26,063 nt of DNA, from the NCBI GenBank assembly GCA_039208735.1, contig JBCCQY010000128.1, forward strand, positions 1 through 26,063, in the 5' to 3' direction. This document shows positions 2,853-25,800 of the stretch, piece after piece. Origin of the DNA: Myxococcota bacterium. GTDB taxonomy: Bacteria; Myxococcota_A; UBA796; GCA-2862545. A program made the position numbers and the translations under genes. Position 1 is the first letter of the stretch, and each line of letters starts with the position of its first letter. Under the pieces are notes generated by a model. It was given only the letters and a program-made list of their open reading frames with translations. It was not told the origin of the DNA and did no database searches.

Positions 2853-3827
2853 TCAGCTCCCGTCCGGTCCCTGCTTCCGCTTGGGGGGGCCGAGCTTCAG
2901 GGCGGCTCGAAAGGCTCGTCGTTCGCGCAGGCTTAGCGAGCTGTTGGGCAAGACCTCATCGGGGTCGCCGCCGGCCAGCAGGGACCGCAGCAGCTCCATC
3001 TCCTCGCGCGAAAACGTGTGCGCGTGCTGGCGGTAGTCGACGAAGGCTTCCCAGGTGTGCGGCACCCATGCGGCGATGAGATCGGCCATCACCTCGGCGT
3101 AGACCCGAATCTCGTACTGGGCATGCGGGTCGGCTCGCAGACCGACGAAGTGCAGCAGGTTGTGGAGATCGATCTTCCAGTACCACTGCGTGTAGGTGCC
3201 CAATGTCAGGTTGGCCCGTGCGAGTTCGCGGGCCACCTGGGGGGCCGACGCGTCGACCGCCTGGCCATCACCCTGGTCGTTGAGCAGGGTGGTGTAGGTT
3301 TCGAAGGTCTGCACGGCGTCGCGACGCAACACCTCGCGAACGTGCGCCGCCTGCTCCGCGGTCAGCGCCTCCCCCCGACCCTGCCGGTTGGTCGAGGACT
3401 GAGCCTTCACCTGATCGGGATCCGGAAGGTAGAACTCTCGGTCAAGAATCGAGTAACGCGCGCTGATCTCGTTCACATTGGCCGTCCGATGACGGATCCA
3501 CTGACGGGCGACGAAAATGGGCAGCTTGACGTGGAGCTTGATCTCGCACATCTCGAGCGGCGTGGTGTGGCGATGACGGACGAGGTAGCGAATCAATCCC
3601 CGATCATCGCGCGCGGTCTTCGTGCCTTTGCCGTAGGACACGCGCGCCGCCTGCACCACCGCTCCATCGTCCCCCATGTAGTCGACGACCCGCACAAACC
3701 CGTGGTCGAGCACCGGATGCAACGTGAAGAGCCGGTCTTCGAGGGCGGGGACCGTGGGACGCCGGGTGGGCGTCGGAGCGGCCGCTCGGGCTTCCGCGAC
3801 GGCTCGCTGCTGCTCCTCGGATGCCAT
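2853..3827 (-). CDS. thyX: FAD-dependent thymidylate synthase ThyX
   Basis: [29 protein letters not shown], the ThyX motif [18 protein letters not shown] and AQYEIR. It has its own AGGAGG RBS before ATG3827. Confidence 0.96.
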
Positions 3828-4208
3828 GGCATCGCCTCCTCGTGGTCCCCGACCTGTAACGGGCCTGACGGCCTCGTCGCGGTCGCAAGCTTCGTACACG
3901 GTGTAGTGGACCGTGCGGTCGACGGTCTCACCGTACCGAAACACCCGAAAGTGCAACCACCGACCCGGCGCGATGTCGAGAGGCGCCTGGGTTCCTCGCC
4001 CCTGCGTGCCGTCGAAATTCACGCAATGGATGAGGATTCGACCGTCCTCGTCGGTGTCGATCCGGGCGTATGGCTCGGTCACATCAGGGTCTTCGTGGAA
4101 TTGGAACTCCACGGTGCATCCCACGCCGTCGAGCACGAGCGGATGACCGCGAAACGTCGTGATCTGTCCGGATGCAAGCACACGAACCGGCCCACTACGG
4201 GCTTCCAC
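3828..4208 (-). CDS. DUF6864-like small beta-rich domain, in frame with thyX and lacking a stop codon
   Basis: GGGAGG RBS before GTG4208. The pattern SGQITTF..P....VEFQF...CVNFD...GRGT..P...LHFRVF...TVHYTVY matches my recollection of DUF6864 proteins. Confidence 0.6.
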
Positions 4209-4303
4209 GAACGCCTCCCAACCTAGGGACAGGGTTTCCTTGACCCTGCTCCGAAGACCATCTAATGGACGGCGGCATCAAGGAATTTCGACCGGAGGTG
4301 GCC

Positions 4304-5059
4304 GTGTCCCTGCTTTCCGACTCCGTGGGCCGCACCTTTGCGGCCTCCGTCCATTCGTTGGCCATCGGCATCGTCACCGACAACAAAGATCCGAAGAACC
4401 TTGGGCGCGTCCGGGTGAAGTTCCCGGGCTTGGCCATCGCGAGTGGCGCGGGCCCCGATGGTAACGATGAGCAGCGAACATCTGGGTGGTACCGGATGAT
4501 CCGGCCCCTCGCGGGCAAGTCCGGTGACTTCTTCAACGTGCCTGACGAGGATGACGAAGTAGTGGTGGGCTTCCTTGACGGCGACCCCGACTTTGGCGTC
4601 ATTCTCGGGCAGCTTTCGAGCGGCATTGCCGAGCCCCGCGACGTCTACGAGCCTATCAAGGTCAAAGGCAAGGGAGAGGCCATGTTCTCGGAGGGCAACT
4701 CGGAGACGGGAGAGGAGTTCGTGAACGCCCGCAGGGTGTGGCGCTCCCGCCTCGGCCACGCCATCATCTTCGACGACACCGAAGATGCCCCGATGGTTCA
4801 GGTGTTCAACCACGACCACAGCATCGGCATCGTGTTCGACGAAAAGAAAAACCAGCTGCTCGTCTACAACAACACGTCCGACATCGTGGTCTCGGCCAAG
4901 GGCGACATCAAGATGACGTGCAAAAACCTCCTCATCGAGACGGAAGCCAACGCTACGATCACGGCCACCGGCGACTTCGAAGTGAGCGGAAAGCAGGGCA
5001 CGATCACGGCGTCGGCCCCCCTCAACGTCACGGGCAAGCCCATCAACCTCAATTCGTGA
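4304..5059 (+). CDS. Phage baseplate assembly protein V / Gp5-OB central spike (eCIS-type split VgrG C-half)
   Basis: GIVTDNKDPKNLGRVRVKFP, W.R...P.AG...FF.VP..DDEVVVGFLDGDP, SRLGHAIIFDD, then a beta-helix-like tail ending GKPINLN. GGAGG precedes GTG4304; ATG4265 is an alternative start. Confidence 0.88.
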   Translation: MSLLSDSVGRTFAASVHSLAIGIVTDNKDPKNLGRVRVKFPGLAIASGAGPDGNDEQRTSGWYRMIRPLAGKSGDFFNVPDEDDEVVVGFLDGDPDFGVILGQLSSGIAEPRDVYEPIKVKGKGEAMFSEGNSETGEEFVNARRVWRSRLGHAIIFDDTEDAPMVQVFNHDHSIGIVFDEKKNQLLVYNNTSDIVVSAKGDIKMTCKNLLIETEANATITATGDFEVSGKQGTITASAPLNVTGKPINLNS

Positions 5060-5549
5060 CATCACCCTCGAAGCGGGTCGCAAAGGCCGGGCCATCCGCA
5101 GAAGCCTTGGCAAACCGTTGCAACGCTTGAGCGACGTCCCCCGCTTGGGGGATGGCAAGTTCGATCCGAAACTGCCCGGCCGGCCCCGACGCACCTAAGG
5201 CCTCGCCTTCGATCACCAGCTTGCCCGGGCCCGTTGAGCGCACCGAATGAAGCGTTCGCCCCCCGTCAGACCGCAGATCGAGCAGGACCCCCCGGTTGGA
5301 CGTGAGCATCAGACGCTGCTCGTCGTAGCCCAGGTCGCCGGTCGTGCGATGGGTTCGACCCGCGGCGATCCCAGGCAATCCGTGCCGCCCGCGGGCCATC
5401 ACGCGCATCGTGAAGCTGCGCAGGAGGGTCGCCCCATCCGACAAGCCTGCGAGGGCGCGACGACGGGTGAGCGCTCCATAGGCACGCAATGCCCCGCCGG
5501 CCGCAATGAGCCCAGCCAACACCGCGAGTCCAACCCACAACTCCGTCAT
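5049..5549 (-). CDS. Hypothetical membrane-anchored protein (N-terminal TM; possible PH-like beta domain)
   Basis: Starts MTELWVGLAVLAGLIAAGG with a GGAGAG RBS, followed by a beta-rich region and a terminal helix. Confidence 0.65.
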   Translation of the reverse strand: MTELWVGLAVLAGLIAAGGALRAYGALTRRRALAGLSDGATLLRSFTMRVMARGRHGLPGIAAGRTHRTTGDLGYDEQRLMLTSNRGVLLDLRSDGGRTLHSVRSTGPGKLVIEGEALGASGPAGQFRIELAIPQAGDVAQALQRFAKASADGPAFATRFEGDVTN

Positions 5550-5610
5550 CGCTGGCTCTCCCCGCCGGTCCAGGCGACAAGTTACGTCCGGATGTCCTCG
5601 GGAGCCCGCC

Positions 5611-6291
5611 GTGACTCGCCCAACCGACAATGTTTTGACCTGGCTTCGGCAGCTCATGAAGGCCCGACGCGTGAATACGGCCGAGCTGGCCGAGCGGTGC
5701 GGCCTGTCCAGAAGCCGGCTGCGGAAGGTGATCTCTGGCGACGAGCCGATGCTCGTCGACGAACTGATGGCCATGTCACAAGCGCTCGAGATCTCGCCTT
5801 CGGATCTCGGGTGGCCCGGCGAATCCGACACGAACGCTGAGGATCCCCAAGACGAGGCTGACGCCGACACCGAAGAGGTCGAGGAGGATGACGGCGGGCG
5901 GCTAGTGGCCTTTCAGGCCACGCGGGTTCCTCTGATCGACGCAGATCCGTTTGGAAACCATGTCGAACAGCTCGTGCGCATGGGCTTCGAACTCGGATGC
6001 ACGTTTCTGTTTTGGGTGCGCGTCGACCAGCTCGGAGATTCCGGTGTGCCCGAGCACGTGCTCGACAGCCACCGTGAACGAGGTGACCTGCTCATCCGAC
6101 TCGAAGACAAGTTCCACCGCTACAACAACCCGGTGTTCGGCGAATCGGGAATCACGCTCACCCTGTCGTTCGACCAGCTCTACGACTGCACCTTTCCGTG
6201 GTCCGCGATTCACAAGGTCATCTTCGATGTGGGCGACGATGAAGATCCCGATGACCCACCCCAGCGACCCCACCTCCGGTTGGTCACGTGA
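5611..6291 (+). CDS. XRE-family HTH fused to an SspB-like (ClpXP adaptor) domain
   Basis: N-terminal LRQLMKARRVNTAELAERCGLSRSRLRKVISG (XRE HTH), an acidic linker, an SspB-like core GVPEHV...GITLTLSF...CTFPWSAI, and a C-terminal RPHLRLVT resembling the ClpX-binding tail. GGAG RBS before GTG5611. Confidence 0.8.
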   Translation: MTRPTDNVLTWLRQLMKARRVNTAELAERCGLSRSRLRKVISGDEPMLVDELMAMSQALEISPSDLGWPGESDTNAEDPQDEADADTEEVEEDDGGRLVAFQATRVPLIDADPFGNHVEQLVRMGFELGCTFLFWVRVDQLGDSGVPEHVLDSHRERGDLLIRLEDKFHRYNNPVFGESGITLTLSFDQLYDCTFPWSAIHKVIFDVGDDEDPDDPPQRPHLRLVT

Positions 6292-7196
6292 CGCCCTACG
6301 GGGTGCCGGTGCTCGACGTTTCCGCGTTTGCCGCGACGCGAAGCGACCCGACCTTTGTGACGGACCTCGAGCAAGCCCTGACCGCCTATGGCTTCGTGGG
6401 ATTGGTTGGCCATAACGTCACAGAAGCCCTGGTTCAATCCTGCGAAGACGCGGCTCGAGACCTCTTTGCGCTGCCCGATGAGGTGAAGGCGCAGTTCGAG
6501 ACTCCTAAGGACGGCCGTCAGCGTGGCTACACCGGCATGGGCGTCGAGCGCGCCAAAGACGCGTCCGTGGCTGACCTCAAGGAGTTCTGGCACGTCGGCC
6601 GCGATGGGGTGCCGACGTTGCCCGAGAATCGGTTTCCCGATGCCGTTCCCGCCCTTGCTCCGGCCGCGCGCGCACTGTTCGACAGGCTCGACGCGCTGTC
6701 CCTGCTCGTGCTGCAAGCCATCGCGTTGGGCCTCGATCTGCCATCCGCGTACTTCACCGACCGCGTGCAAGGTGGGAACAACGTCCTGCGACTCATCCAC
6801 TACCCACCGGTGGGCTCAAAGGCACCTCCCGGCGCCGTGCGAGCCGCCGCCCACGAAGACATCAACCTCATCACGCTGCTGCCCGTCGCCGCGGAACCAG
6901 GCCTTGAGCTGCGCACGCGAGACGGCACCTGGGTGCCCATCCGTCCGCCACCGGGGGCCATCGTGCTCGACACGGGCGACATGATGCAGCTTGTAACGAA
7001 CGGTCGACTTCCCGCGACTACCCACCGTGTGGTGAATCCGCCCTCGGCTACCGCGGACCGGCCTCGCTACTCCATGCCATTCTTTGTGCACCCCAAACCC
7101 CAGGTGCGACTCGATCGCATCGACGGGAGCGCCACCGGTCCCACCGCGGAGGCGTTCTTGACGAAACGCCTGCGGGAGACCGGAGTCGCTTCTTGA
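6288..7196 (+). CDS. 2OG-Fe(II) oxygenase, isopenicillin N synthase family
   Basis: DIOX_N features (GFVGLVGHNV, RGY, DLKEFW), the HxD motif HEDINL, distal His in TTHRVVNP, and the 2OG-binding RYS. The start overlaps the upstream stop (GTGA). Confidence 0.93.
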   Translation: MTPYGVPVLDVSAFAATRSDPTFVTDLEQALTAYGFVGLVGHNVTEALVQSCEDAARDLFALPDEVKAQFETPKDGRQRGYTGMGVERAKDASVADLKEFWHVGRDGVPTLPENRFPDAVPALAPAARALFDRLDALSLLVLQAIALGLDLPSAYFTDRVQGGNNVLRLIHYPPVGSKAPPGAVRAAAHEDINLITLLPVAAEPGLELRTRDGTWVPIRPPPGAIVLDTGDMMQLVTNGRLPATTHRVVNPPSATADRPRYSMPFFVHPKPQVRLDRIDGSATGPTAEAFLTKRLRETGVAS

Positions 7197-22197: not shown

Positions 22198-25100
22198 TCA
22201 GGGATTGCAGTGGTCGAGGCCGAGGTCGGACCCGTCGTTCGACGTCGCGGTAGCCGTCCACTCGAGCGAGGGATCGAAGGCATCGGAGCCGTCGTCATCG
22301 CCCATGGTGACCGAGCAGTTTCGGCGAAGCACCGAGTTCTGGGTGCTAACTCCACCGTTACTCCAGGCTGAACCCGGATCTTCGCCGATACGACCGATGA
22401 CGTCTTCGGTCACTCCGTTGCACAGCAACTCGATCGCATCGTCGCCGTTGAACGAAAGGTCGACCGACTGGTCACAGACCCCGCCCAGCGTCACCGTGAT
22501 GGGGTTCTGATTGGCCGGACAAACGAGGAACACCTCGCCTGGGGCAAGCATCACGGAACTCAGCGTGAAGGTCTGCCCCCCGTTCGGCGTGCTGTTGCCG
22601 TTGGTGTAGGGCTGAACCTCACAGTTGCCAAGATCGACGTCGGCGCCCGAGAGGTTTTTGATTTCGAGGAACTTGTGGTTTCCGAGCGAGTCCGCCTCGA
22701 AGTACTCCCAAAACGCAATTCCGCTGCCCACTGGCGCATTGGAGACGTCCACCGTGGCACTCAGGCCATCCACGGTCACCAGGAAGGTGCCCACGTCGAT
22801 TGAGGTCACATCGATGTCGACGATCGTATCTCCGGCCGGAACGGTGACCTGACCGGGCACCGTGATGCCCGGGTCGCCCGTCACGACGAGGTCCAACCCG
22901 CCGGCCGGGGCAGGAAGGTCGATCGTGGCCGTCAAGATGCCACTGTTGCCTGGTTGCAAGTTGAGCACCGCGGGCATCAGCTCGATGACCTGACGTGGCG
23001 TGGTGTCGTCGTACACGCTCACATCGGCGATGGCTTGTGTTGTGCCGAGGCTTGCGGTGACCGTCGCCATGCCGTTGGCCAGTCCGTCGATGACAAAATC
23101 AGCTGAGGACTGCCCCGCAAGCACATCTACGCTGGCGGGACATCCGATGGTGCCAGCCGGCGCGCAGGTCAGCTGCACCGTCTCGACCTGGGCCGCGGGG
23201 AAGCGAAGGTTCACCGTGAGCGTGGCCATCGCACCCACTTCGACCGTGACGTCTCCGGGGGTCAGCCCATCAATCTCGTTGAACCCAAAGAGCAAATCAA
23301 ACTCGCCCCTCGGCTCGAGCTTCGATGCGTTGTTGGCAAACCGCAAGACCCCGGTGACGGCATCGAAGGTATCGCCCACGGCGGGGTTCAAGTCGTAGAA
23401 GAAGTCACCGACGCGAAGCAGACCGTTGAGTTCGCTTTCGCCGGAGGGATCGCTGTCGCCGGGACCGGCCGGCAGATCGAGGGCCGTGACTTCAACATTC
23501 TGCACGGTGACCAGTGCGGCCTCGAGCTCGTCAGCACGGCCGCCCTGGGTGCGGACCTCATCCGGGGTGGCGACGGTCGAATCGGGGAGGGCGACGCCCA
23601 TTGCGACGACCTGCACATCCACGAGGTTCGACAGCTGGATCTGGCCAAAGAAGTCCTGCACGGGAGCGGTGATGGTCACCACATCGCCCACGGCGACCTG
23701 GTCGGCGAAATCTGGACTAAAGGTGTAGATCCCTGAATAATCGACGCCGTTGTAGGTGGGCGACGTGGGGTCAAGCTGCGCAAACCAGCTCGTTCCGGGA
23801 CGAACCGCGGTCACGATGAGGTCTTCGACAACCACCAAATCACCCGTCCATAGGCCTTGTTTGACGTCGTACACCGTGGCGAGACAGGCCCCTTCGGGTG
23901 ACGCAAAGTCGTCGCAGGGGTCGCAAGCGGCTCCGATGCCGTCATTGTCGGCGTCTTCCTGGGTCGGATTCTTGTCACGGGGGCAGTTGTCGTCAAGGTC
24001 GAGAATGCCGTCGCCATCCACATCACCCACCGGACAGTCCGTGCCTTCCTCCAACGGGCAGACGTCACACGCGTCGCCCTCACCATCCCCATCCACGTCG
24101 GGCTGAATCCAGCCGTCAAGAGGACGCCGGGGATTGAAGACGGTGGGGCAATTGTCGACATCGTCATCCTCGCCGTCCAGATCCTGATCCATCATGGACG
24201 AGGTGGGGTAGATCACCCCGTCCCCGTCTTCGTTGTCGCGGAACGGTTCGCAGCTCGGCTCGTCAGCTGGCGCCTCGCAGATTTCTACCGGGTAGGCCTG
24301 TGACGGCGCGGCGGCGTTGATCTGGGCCAGGCTGAAGCGGTCGAGGCAAGCCACGTGGTCGCTTAGGCAGTCCGACAGGTCGTCGCAGGCATCGAAGCTC
24401 GCACTGTCGAGCAGGCCCGCGATGGTGGTGCGTTCTCCGGTCATTGGACGGCCCCCCCGGAACACCAGTGCCACGTCATCGATGCCCGCCCCCACGACTG
24501 CGTGATGCAACGCGCGCCCGTCGTTCGCAAACACCGCCACGTCGGCCACCGTTCCGACGGCCAGACGCCCGAGCTGGTCTTCGACGCCCATCGCAATCGC
24601 CCCGTTGCGGGTGACCATCCGCCACAGATCAAAGTCGGAGAAGTAGGCGCCGAGGTGTTCGCGATTGAAGTCATCGGCGCACTGCAGCTCGCGCAGGACC
24701 GTGGTCGAGCCACTCGGCACCCAGTCCGTGCCCAGCGCGATGGGCACCCCAAAGCGGTCGTAGGTCACGACAGCGGCCGTGTCGCCGTACAGCGAGAGGT
24801 TCGACCGGGGCGACCACACCAAGTGCGCTCCCCGCGACGCCGCAAAGGCGATGTCTTCGGCGGTCAGCGCAATGCCGTGGACGATCGATGTGTTGTCCTG
24901 GATGTAGTCGACAGACTGGGCGCCTTCGCCGGAAAGGCACGCAAACTCGTTGCGGGCTTCCGGGTCGATGCCTTCCGCGATGTGAGGCAGGTAGATCTCG
25001 CGGTTCAGGACGTTCGAGCTTTCAGGGTTGTACGAACCGCATCCCGAGTCTTCAAGCACGGGAAAACCAGCATCGCCGAGAGGGAACGTCGAATAGTCGA

Positions 25101-25800
25101 CGTTACCGGGATTCAGCCCCTCGTTGTAGTTGGCATTGTCGAGGTTTCGCATGAGCCCCGAAGCGTTCACACTCGAGATCGAGCCCGCGATGGAGGTCGC
25201 ACCACCCAACATCATGCGCAGTTCGCCAAGGAGCGTGATCTCAGGCTGGTTCGACGAACTGGTGTTGAGTTCGTCGTGCCCCCGGGTTCCGCGACGCCAA
25301 TCGTGCCGGTGATCGAACCGCTCGTCACCGTGTGACTTCACCGTCTCGCCCGCATAGCGAATGTGGTCGTGGGCATTGATGAGCCCAGGCGAAAGTACCG
25401 CATCGGGGCAGCTCACCACCAGCGCATCAGCTTCAGAACAGTCACAGCCCACGCACTCGATCGTCGCATTCGTCTGATTCAACGCAAACCGAATCTCCCC
25501 GGAAACGAAGACGTCGGGATCCCCAAGCACATCCCCTTGCAGGACGACCGAGGTGGCGGTCGCGGGATCACCGGTCACGGTGCAGGTTTCGCCCGCCGGC
25601 GGCTCCGCCAGGGTGCGCGCGCAATCCGTAATCTCGAACGGATCGGGTTGTTGCGTGGGTGGAGGCGGAGGAGTGGGCGGCATGCCCGTGTCTAAAGGGT
25701 CACCGGTTTCTTCTGGCGGTACGGGGACTTCGTCGCCTCCATCACCACCACAACCAACGCCCGCTAAGAGCAGCAGGCAAGGGAACAATCGCACAGCCAC
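22198..25800 (-). CDS. Lipoprotein: amidohydrolase/deaminase + thrombospondin type 3 repeats + OB-folds + Ig-like + lamin-tail domain
   Basis: Lipobox-like GVGC; PGLINAHDH, HIAEG, IVHG, LGTDW; DNCP/DxDGDG/GDACD repeats; YSGIYTF...VGDVVT and VTGVLRF....KLEPR OB-folds; EYFE...KFLEIKN...FNGDDAIEL...DVIG LTD. Confidence 0.9.
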   Translation of the reverse strand: MAVRLFPCLLLLAGVGCGGDGGDEVPVPPEETGDPLDTGMPPTPPPPPTQQPDPFEITDCARTLAEPPAGETCTVTGDPATATSVVLQGDVLGDPDVFVSGEIRFALNQTNATIECVGCDCSEADALVVSCPDAVLSPGLINAHDHIRYAGETVKSHGDERFDHRHDWRRGTRGHDELNTSSSNQPEITLLGELRMMLGGATSIAGSISSVNASGLMRNLDNANYNEGLNPGNVDYSTFPLGDAGFPVLEDSGCGSYNPESSNVLNREIYLPHIAEGIDPEARNEFACLSGEGAQSVDYIQDNTSIVHGIALTAEDIAFAASRGAHLVWSPRSNLSLYGDTAAVVTYDRFGVPIALGTDWVPSGSTTVLRELQCADDFNREHLGAYFSDFDLWRMVTRNGAIAMGVEDQLGRLAVGTVADVAVFANDGRALHHAVVGAGIDDVALVFRGGRPMTGERTTIAGLLDSASFDACDDLSDCLSDHVACLDRFSLAQINAAAPSQAYPVEICEAPADEPSCEPFRDNEDGDGVIYPTSSMMDQDLDGEDDDVDNCPTVFNPRRPLDGWIQPDVDGDGEGDACDVCPLEEGTDCPVGDVDGDGILDLDDNCPRDKNPTQEDADNDGIGAACDPCDDFASPEGACLATVYDVKQGLWTGDLVVVEDLIVTAVRPGTSWFAQLDPTSPTYNGVDYSGIYTFSPDFADQVAVGDVVTITAPVQDFFGQIQLSNLVDVQVVAMGVALPDSTVATPDEVRTQGGRADELEAALVTVQNVEVTALDLPAGPGDSDPSGESELNGLLRVGDFFYDLNPAVGDTFDAVTGVLRFANNASKLEPRGEFDLLFGFNEIDGLTPGDVTVEVGAMATLTVNLRFPAAQVETVQLTCAPAGTIGCPASVDVLAGQSSADFVIDGLANGMATVTASLGTTQAIADVSVYDDTTPRQVIELMPAVLNLQPGNSGILTATIDLPAPAGGLDLVVTGDPGITVPGQVTVPAGDTIVDIDVTSIDVGTFLVTVDGLSATVDVSNAPVGSGIAFWEYFEADSLGNHKFLEIKNLSGADVDLGNCEVQPYTNGNSTPNGGQTFTLSSVMLAPGEVFLVCPANQNPITVTLGGVCDQSVDLSFNGDDAIELLCNGVTEDVIGRIGEDPGSAWSNGGVSTQNSVLRRNCSVTMGDDDGSDAFDPSLEWTATATSNDGSDLGLDHCNP
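23930..24200 (-). repeat. Thrombospondin type 3 Ca-binding repeats within the large lipoprotein
   Basis: DQDLDGEDDDVDNCP, DVDGDGEGDACDVCP, DVDGDGILDLDDNCP, DADNDGIGAACDPC. Boundaries are approximate. Confidence 0.85.

Follow-up and report, generated by a model that had tools for sequence, protein, structure and literature searches.

The stretch of DNA analysed here, 26,063 nucleotides from a Myxococcota bacterium (assembly GCA_039208735.1, contig JBCCQY010000128.1, positions 1 to 26,063; hereafter the window), carries on its forward strand a gene of 226 amino acids (aa) with a GTG start (5611..6291) that joins an XRE/Cro helix-turn-helix (HTH) domain to a domain resembling SspB, a textbook stand-alone protease adaptor. 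The fusion of the two domains in one gene is real. A likely ribosome-binding site, GGGAG, lies at 5600..5604 (+), preceded at 5581..5584 (+) by a GTTA element that is likely part of a -10 box of the sigma-70 family; alternative starts at 5506 and Met16 were ruled out by conservation. An initial inspection of the letters alone (the sequence-only reading) had proposed this architecture, which is borne out by Pfam matches to the HTH and by fold and profile matches to SspB.

A homologue search returned 89 proteins from 338 candidates, the window's own protein included, and the alignment used throughout (A1) holds 85 sequences, the query and 84 hits, with the duplicate own copy and the partial matches P0007, P0030 and P0090 excluded. 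The AlphaFold2 model of the fusion protein computed with A1 (mean predicted local distance difference test, pLDDT, 83.8; predicted template modelling score, pTM, 0.53) contains two confident domains separated by a low-confidence linker. The first, the XRE/Cro HTH (5626..5808, +; residues about 6-66), matches the Pfam families HTH_26 (E 9.7e-9) and HTH_3 (E 1.5e-5) over residues 12-66, both above cut-off, and HTH_26 is found in 85/85 family members; the model predicts a five-helix HTH fold for it (helices 5-18, 23-30, 34-42, 49-58 and 63-66), with residues 34-42 as the putative recognition helix. The linker (5812..5943, +; residues 68-111) ranges from 20 to 49 residues across the family and has a negative net charge in 84/85 members. 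The SspB-fold domain that follows (5944..6228, +; residues 112-206) opens with a predicted dimer helix, residues 117-128, and contains a predicted tag groove made up of the conserved D-A-A-Y-H and L-S-F-D segments. An acidic, proline-rich tether (6229..6264, +) then leads to a ClpX-binding-type tail, RPHLRLVT (6265..6288, +), family members having 20-53 residues after F205.

Fold searches and profile comparison both assign the SspB fold, an N-terminal helix followed by a small beta-barrel, to the C-terminal half, as had been supposed from the letters: the profile match to stand-alone Myxococcota SspB reaches 98.1%, and the Atlas structure match of the domain to a Myxococcota SspB cluster has a TM score of 0.65. 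Direct sequence searches of Pfam, NCBIfam and the PDB with this half gave nothing significant, the best E value being 0.036 (Caulobacter SspB), and at the cut-off of the Pfam SspB family (PF04386) there were 0 matches for the query, with 7/85 members matching weakly (best E 0.0024). The homology of this half to SspB rests on fold and profile comparison, not on a direct Pfam score. Set against SspBs of known structure (E. coli 8ET3 and 1OX9; the H. influenzae-type 1OU8 and 1OU9; the alphaproteobacterial 2NYS, 2QAS and 2QAZ), the fusion adds the N-terminal XRE HTH, is only 11-20% identical and under the Pfam cut-off, carries L-S-F-D instead of A-R-F-G, and goes with a cognate transfer-messenger RNA (tmRNA) tag reading A-N-N instead of A-N-D.

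The conserved columns of the domain cluster in its first helix, where N116, Q120, F126, L128 and G129 are 96-98% conserved, and in two segments matching the groove region of the E. coli protein. According to the accessible text of PMC9963277, SspB is conserved only at the dimer interface and groove, and binds the seven residues with which the tag begins; the pattern seen here is the one given there, which favours an adaptor role. Columns of the groove region are conserved within the family and changed from E. coli, with A166, H169, N172 and D188 invariant and specific to the family.

The tail motif LRLV is kept in 88/89 sequences, in agreement with its expected conservation among homologues, and in the 35 genome-derived rows its L is invariant and RLV present in at least 90%. 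In the model pLDDT is about 50 across the tail, whose end can be compared with the RPALRVVK that terminates E. coli SspB chain 8et3_Y; at the level of sequence, a disordered tether and a ClpX-binding motif of the SspB type are present. Stand-alone SspBs of other Myxococcota mostly share the same HLRxVK tail, but have no HTH, often lie beside ssrA (16/76) and go with A-N-D tags. In sister families, stand-alone SspBs (L031:2627-3097 and L032:2430-2852) end in an NVRLFRPR/NVRPFRPR-type sequence instead of LRLV, an ending like that of the alphaproteobacterial-type L043; the SspB tail type changed within the class.

Conservation and distribution of the fusion

Column conservation is 0.66 in the HTH and 0.68 in the SspB core, against 0.13 in the linker, and the ratio of non-synonymous to synonymous differences (pN/pS; uncorrected, from nine pairs of which three are not independent) spans 0-0.35 in the HTH, 0-0.45 in the core and 0.16-0.85 in the linker. 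The HTH is under purifying selection, maintained as well as the SspB core. Its recognition helix is basic and conserved, R34, R36 and R38 occurring in 96, 85 and 96% of the 85 rows, and a hydrophobic segment, M47-L52, is also highly conserved. The median net charge of the HTH is +1, next to the acidic linker, which would distinguish it from non-specific, strongly basic DNA binders. Taken together, conservation equal to that of the core, low pN/pS, the three arginines and the weak charge suggest that the HTH binds DNA specifically.

Two other roles for the HTH would not involve DNA. It could act as a second substrate-capture domain, binding protein by pairing with XRE-type regulators or repressors for delivery to ClpXP. 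XRE domains do form heteromers, pairing with each other in the SinR/SinI complex, whose entry 1b0n is among the fold hits, and the conservation of M47-L52 would suit such pairing; the three conserved arginines, however, stand on the helix with which XRE proteins read DNA, and we consider this role quite unlikely. Alternatively, like MBF1/EDF1, the HTH could bind ribosomal RNA or tmRNA on stalled ribosomes, placing SspB where tagged chains emerge. The fold hit that raises this idea ranks 29th among generic XRE matches, and the Pfam and NCBIfam scans returned no MBF1-type family, leaving it very unlikely. The fold match to ClgR, an XRE-family regulator of clp genes in Actinobacteria (PDB 3F51), is likewise generic, and ClgR presumably has no adaptor domain.

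Distribution was surveyed in 401 genomes of the phylum, 60 of them from the uncultured order of Myxococcota to which this genome belongs (hereafter the order). At E < 1e-42, A1 matches 55/60 order genomes, with both halves in 54 and the SspB half alone in G202, and HTH and SspB share one frame in 34/35 order loci translated, rather than SspB forming a stand-alone single-domain protein; the expectation that homologues would share the fused architecture held. In the 341 genomes outside the order A1 matches cover one half only, and the sister families have the SspB domain in stand-alone form. A wider search (A2), blind to the fusion itself, matched 108/123 order genomes, in single copy except in G406 and G420. 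At locus L147 (G420:C80) the SspB half is broken over two frames, by a frameshift or an assembly error. Pfam SspB matches number 0/60 in the order, 0/18 elsewhere in the class and 146/323 in other classes; since Pfam misses this SspB subfamily, its zeros exclude only a canonical second copy. The sequence-only reading had raised the question of a separate canonical sspB; none was found in this assembly (92.7% complete), where the fusion is the sole SspB-like match.

Beyond the survey, a search of 1.84 billion representatives yielded 91 strong hits among the best 150 of 190, of which 72 carry the HTH and 19 are short, partial or HTH-less, and the Atlas contains two unnamed Myxococcota clusters with the HTH-SspB architecture. 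Longer forms gave no match among proteins of 397-2000 aa and HTH-alone forms no candidate among proteins of 30-123 aa, both weak negatives; no relatives were found on viral contigs and plasmids.

In G202 the gene occupies the same locus, with an ATG start immediately before the SspB domain and no HTH. Because its congener G446 is fused, this absence is likely a secondary loss. A quick, poorly resolved tree (82 rows, 112 columns) groups the fused rows with a Shimodaira-Hasegawa-like approximate likelihood ratio test (SH-aLRT) value of 83, and five short or HTH-less rows fall inside the group, so that the tree alone does not show a single origin. The loss in G202 and the short stand-alone sequences within the fused group are what a passenger fusion would predict, an ordinary SspB carrying a non-functional HTH, but the conservation of the HTH, matching that of the SspB core under purifying selection, and its presence in 54/60 order genomes largely refute this explanation, which we hold to be exceedingly improbable.

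Among more distant relatives, Atlas clusters with many Uroviricota members (122-143 aa) match residues 112-208, and HTH-less relatives with other N-terminal extensions include L145:6012-7172 (G406:C285), P0199, P0185, P0193, P0197, P0202, P0211 and P0227, one HTH-less relative being a second copy inside a phage-like stretch. These relatives and clusters are possibly phage-encoded ClpX adaptors. P0177, a distant SspB-domain relative whose helical N-terminal domain is missed by the HTH profile, may represent a second fusion or one that has diverged greatly.

Tags, ClpXP and the upstream GTTA element

This genome encodes tig-clpP-clpX, a second clpX with a zinc domain, and a tmRNA with the tag ANNNNFFAAQAVA. 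The ClpX zinc domain is present in 46/46 order genomes, with at least two matches in all but one of them; many order genomes also encode a protein of ~700 aa with two tandem weak ClpX zinc domain matches. Tags begin A-N-N at all 30 order tmRNA loci read (25 ARAGORN calls, 5 read by hand) and in G202. By pattern search, A-N-N was found in 40/60 order genomes and A-N-D in 0/60, compared with 7/341 and 113/341, respectively, outside the order, the remainder in each set matching neither.

Examination of the relatives indicates when this change arose. G044 and G292, whose SspBs are stand-alone and carry L-S-F-D, have A-N-N tags; in three genomes of family f7, SspBs with L-S-F-R/G/Q-G go with A-N-D. 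Because the HTH-less G044 and G292 already combine L-S-F-D with A-N-N, the tag change at position 4 goes with the SspB subfamily and predates the fusion. As a guess from known structures, position 4 of the tag may be faced by D188; contacts of groove residues were not found in the papers searched for them. L-S-F-D is also carried by the alphaproteobacterial-type SspB L044.

Both stand-alone sspB and an A-N-D tmRNA were located in 76 phylum genomes; in 16 of these, spread over several families, the distance from sspB to ssrA is within 10 kb, and in three it is under 500 bases; L146 (G220:C38) is one of the 16. Loss of this linkage in the fusion, together with the family-specific invariant groove residues, would be compatible with a peptide-sensing transcription factor, its groove having been turned from the ssrA tag to a different ligand, for instance a piece of an anti-sigma factor or some other degron, and its tail serving to turn over the regulator or a partner; delivery of RseA 1-108 by SspB is described in the accessible part of PMC8138137. 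The diverged groove is, however, already present in the HTH-less G044 and G292, both with A-N-N tags, the linker is unconserved, and no other SspB was found in the genome for the ssrA task, which makes such a sensor unlikely.

Upstream of the fusion gene, GTTA occurs at 50 to 8 bases in 20/45 loci, against 1.6 in shuffles (7 near-duplicates having been dropped to leave 45 regions) and a background of 6.6% among 2,168 gene starts from a crude call. Promoter counts cover only loci with a placeable start. On this basis GTTA lies at most 92 bases upstream of clpP in 12/23 order loci and 0/14 outside, compared with 0/30 for rplM and 1/25 for groES; with a fixed anchor, the clpP counts become 14/23 in the order and 2/19 outside. 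The element is strand-oriented, comes with a weak T-x-G-x-C spaced as for sigma-70 and is kept in the HTH-less G202; it likely marks a promoter class common to the fusion gene and clpP in the order. The oriented GTTA (12/23) is all that was found upstream of clpP here; a palindrome resembling that of ClgR did not appear.

Adaptor and regulator readings

The fusion protein probably serves as an SspB-type adaptor that delivers tmRNA-tagged proteins to ClpXP. This assignment draws on the fold and profile matches, the status of the fusion as sole SspB-like match, the LRLV tail and the presence of a ClpX zinc domain and tmRNA, as well as on the ssrA linkage of the phylum's stand-alone sspB, the tag shift and the GTTA element in common with clpP. 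Sequence and predicted fold supply the starting point of the mechanism we propose, a single-copy protein fused across the order in which an HTH, a linker, an SspB fold and a tail follow one another. By analogy with SspB, the protein would dimerise through helix 117-128, hold the Asn-rich ssrA tag of the lineage in its groove and dock its LRLV tail on the ClpX zinc-binding domain. The SspB dimer may then provide the dimerisation that XRE domains employ in reading an operator. In the most speculative step, coupling would occur by partition and not by allostery, which is disfavoured because the linker is unconserved: a substrate-loaded dimer would be held on ClpX and be less available to DNA, such that ribosome-rescue stress would alter the occupancy of HTH sites and transcription would respond to the load of tagged proteins.

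That the HTH binds DNA sequence-specifically as a dimer formed through the SspB domain, and that its partition between ClpX and DNA couples it to the amount of tagged protein, is plausible, although we stop short of calling it probable. More tentatively, the protein could be a natural adaptor-regulator whose groove reads tmRNA-tag flux, whose tail docks ClpXP and whose dimeric HTH binds promoters (or stations ClpXP on DNA), the groove and tag having been re-tuned (Asp to Asn, position 4) as a lineage-private, possibly orthogonal pair also copied by phages.

Several observations weigh against the proposed mechanism. No conserved palindrome was found upstream of the fusion gene, the best spaced dyad occurring in 4/45 regions, and dyad tests found no conserved dyad upstream of ssrA or clpP. 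GTTA is itself an unlikely operator for the HTH, being oriented, set at sigma-70 spacing and persistent in G202, where the HTH is dispensable. Linkage of the fused gene to ssrA, at the 10 kb limit, was seen in 0/38 cases, and the groove has diverged from that of E. coli, R75 corresponding to S186 and G77 to D188 in a chained alignment. The tag shift counts as one event passed on by descent, and A-N-N occurs in the 7 outside genomes as well. Of the interpretation offered by the sequence-only reading, the architecture stands, whereas allosteric peptide sensing is disfavoured by the linker (conservation 0.13, 20-49 residues) and autorepression gained no support, no conserved palindrome having been found upstream.

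The lack of an operator near the fusion gene, ssrA or clpP would be less troubling for a DNA-tethered adaptor, in which the HTH anchors SspB and ClpXP on the chromosome to degrade DNA-bound or co-transcriptionally tagged proteins, with no control of transcription. The long flexible linker and tether suit anchoring, and the accessible text of PMC12373786 indicates that a ClpX-binding (XB) peptide joined to a binder suffices for recruitment of a target to ClpXP. Given a weakly basic HTH beside an acidic linker, and near-invariant recognition-helix residues that would better fit a specific site, we find this alternative rather doubtful.

Whether stationed on DNA or, as we favour, reading specific sites there, the protein resembles engineered XB-tail degraders (CLIPPERs, in the accessible text of PMC12373786; split SspB), in which a binding module, a linker and an SspB tail recruit ClpXP. 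Those degraders are synthetic peptides, whereas the fusion retains the SspB core and its extra module is natural and N-terminal. No natural HTH-SspB fusion appeared in the literature searched, whose coverage leaves out most subscription journals. In its accessible part, a 2021 review (PMC8138137) lists SspB only for certain proteobacteria; here SspB is found throughout Myxococcota and is joined, in one entire order, to a conserved domain of DNA-binding type. If correct, the proposed mechanism would connect trans-translation, ClpXP and the chromosome in a direct, physical way, and an adaptor-regulator would give direct feedback from ribosome rescue to transcription in one Myxococcota order. The coincident change of tag and groove offers a natural example of adaptor-degron re-tuning that can be tested, and degron and optogenetic tools could gain an orthogonal SspB/tag pair from it.

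Neighbouring genes

Divergent from the fusion gene lies a conserved neighbour (5049..5549, -) of 166 aa with a hydrophobic N-terminus and no Pfam or NCBIfam family, and next to it a conserved gene (4265..5059, +) for a short VgrG/gp5-like protein with an oligonucleotide/oligosaccharide-binding (OB) fold (PF04717). A VgrG/gp5-like gene of this family stands upstream of the fusion in 21/35 order loci, sometimes in two copies; no other secretion-system families were seen among the open reading frames of the window that were scanned. Downstream, a gene for a 2-oxoglutarate (2OG)-Fe(II) oxygenase (6288..7196, +) overlaps the stop codon of the fusion, and in 16 loci (L008:2134-3516 and 15 others) its place is taken by a conserved protein of ~460 aa without a Pfam or NCBIfam family. 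No toxin is encoded beside the fusion, where the VgrG-like, the small unnamed and the oxygenase genes lie, and the reading of its product as a HigA/HipB-like antitoxin of a type II toxin-antitoxin system was therefore rejected; the HigA model scores 14 bits against a cut-off of 47.7.

Elsewhere in the window, positions 2853-4208 (-) hold DUF6864 followed by ThyX in one open frame, the two being joined at some homologous loci and apart at others, as a fusion or as two genes, and positions 22198-25800 (-) encode a 1200-aa protein with matches to an amidohydrolase, TSP3 repeats and a lamin-tail domain.
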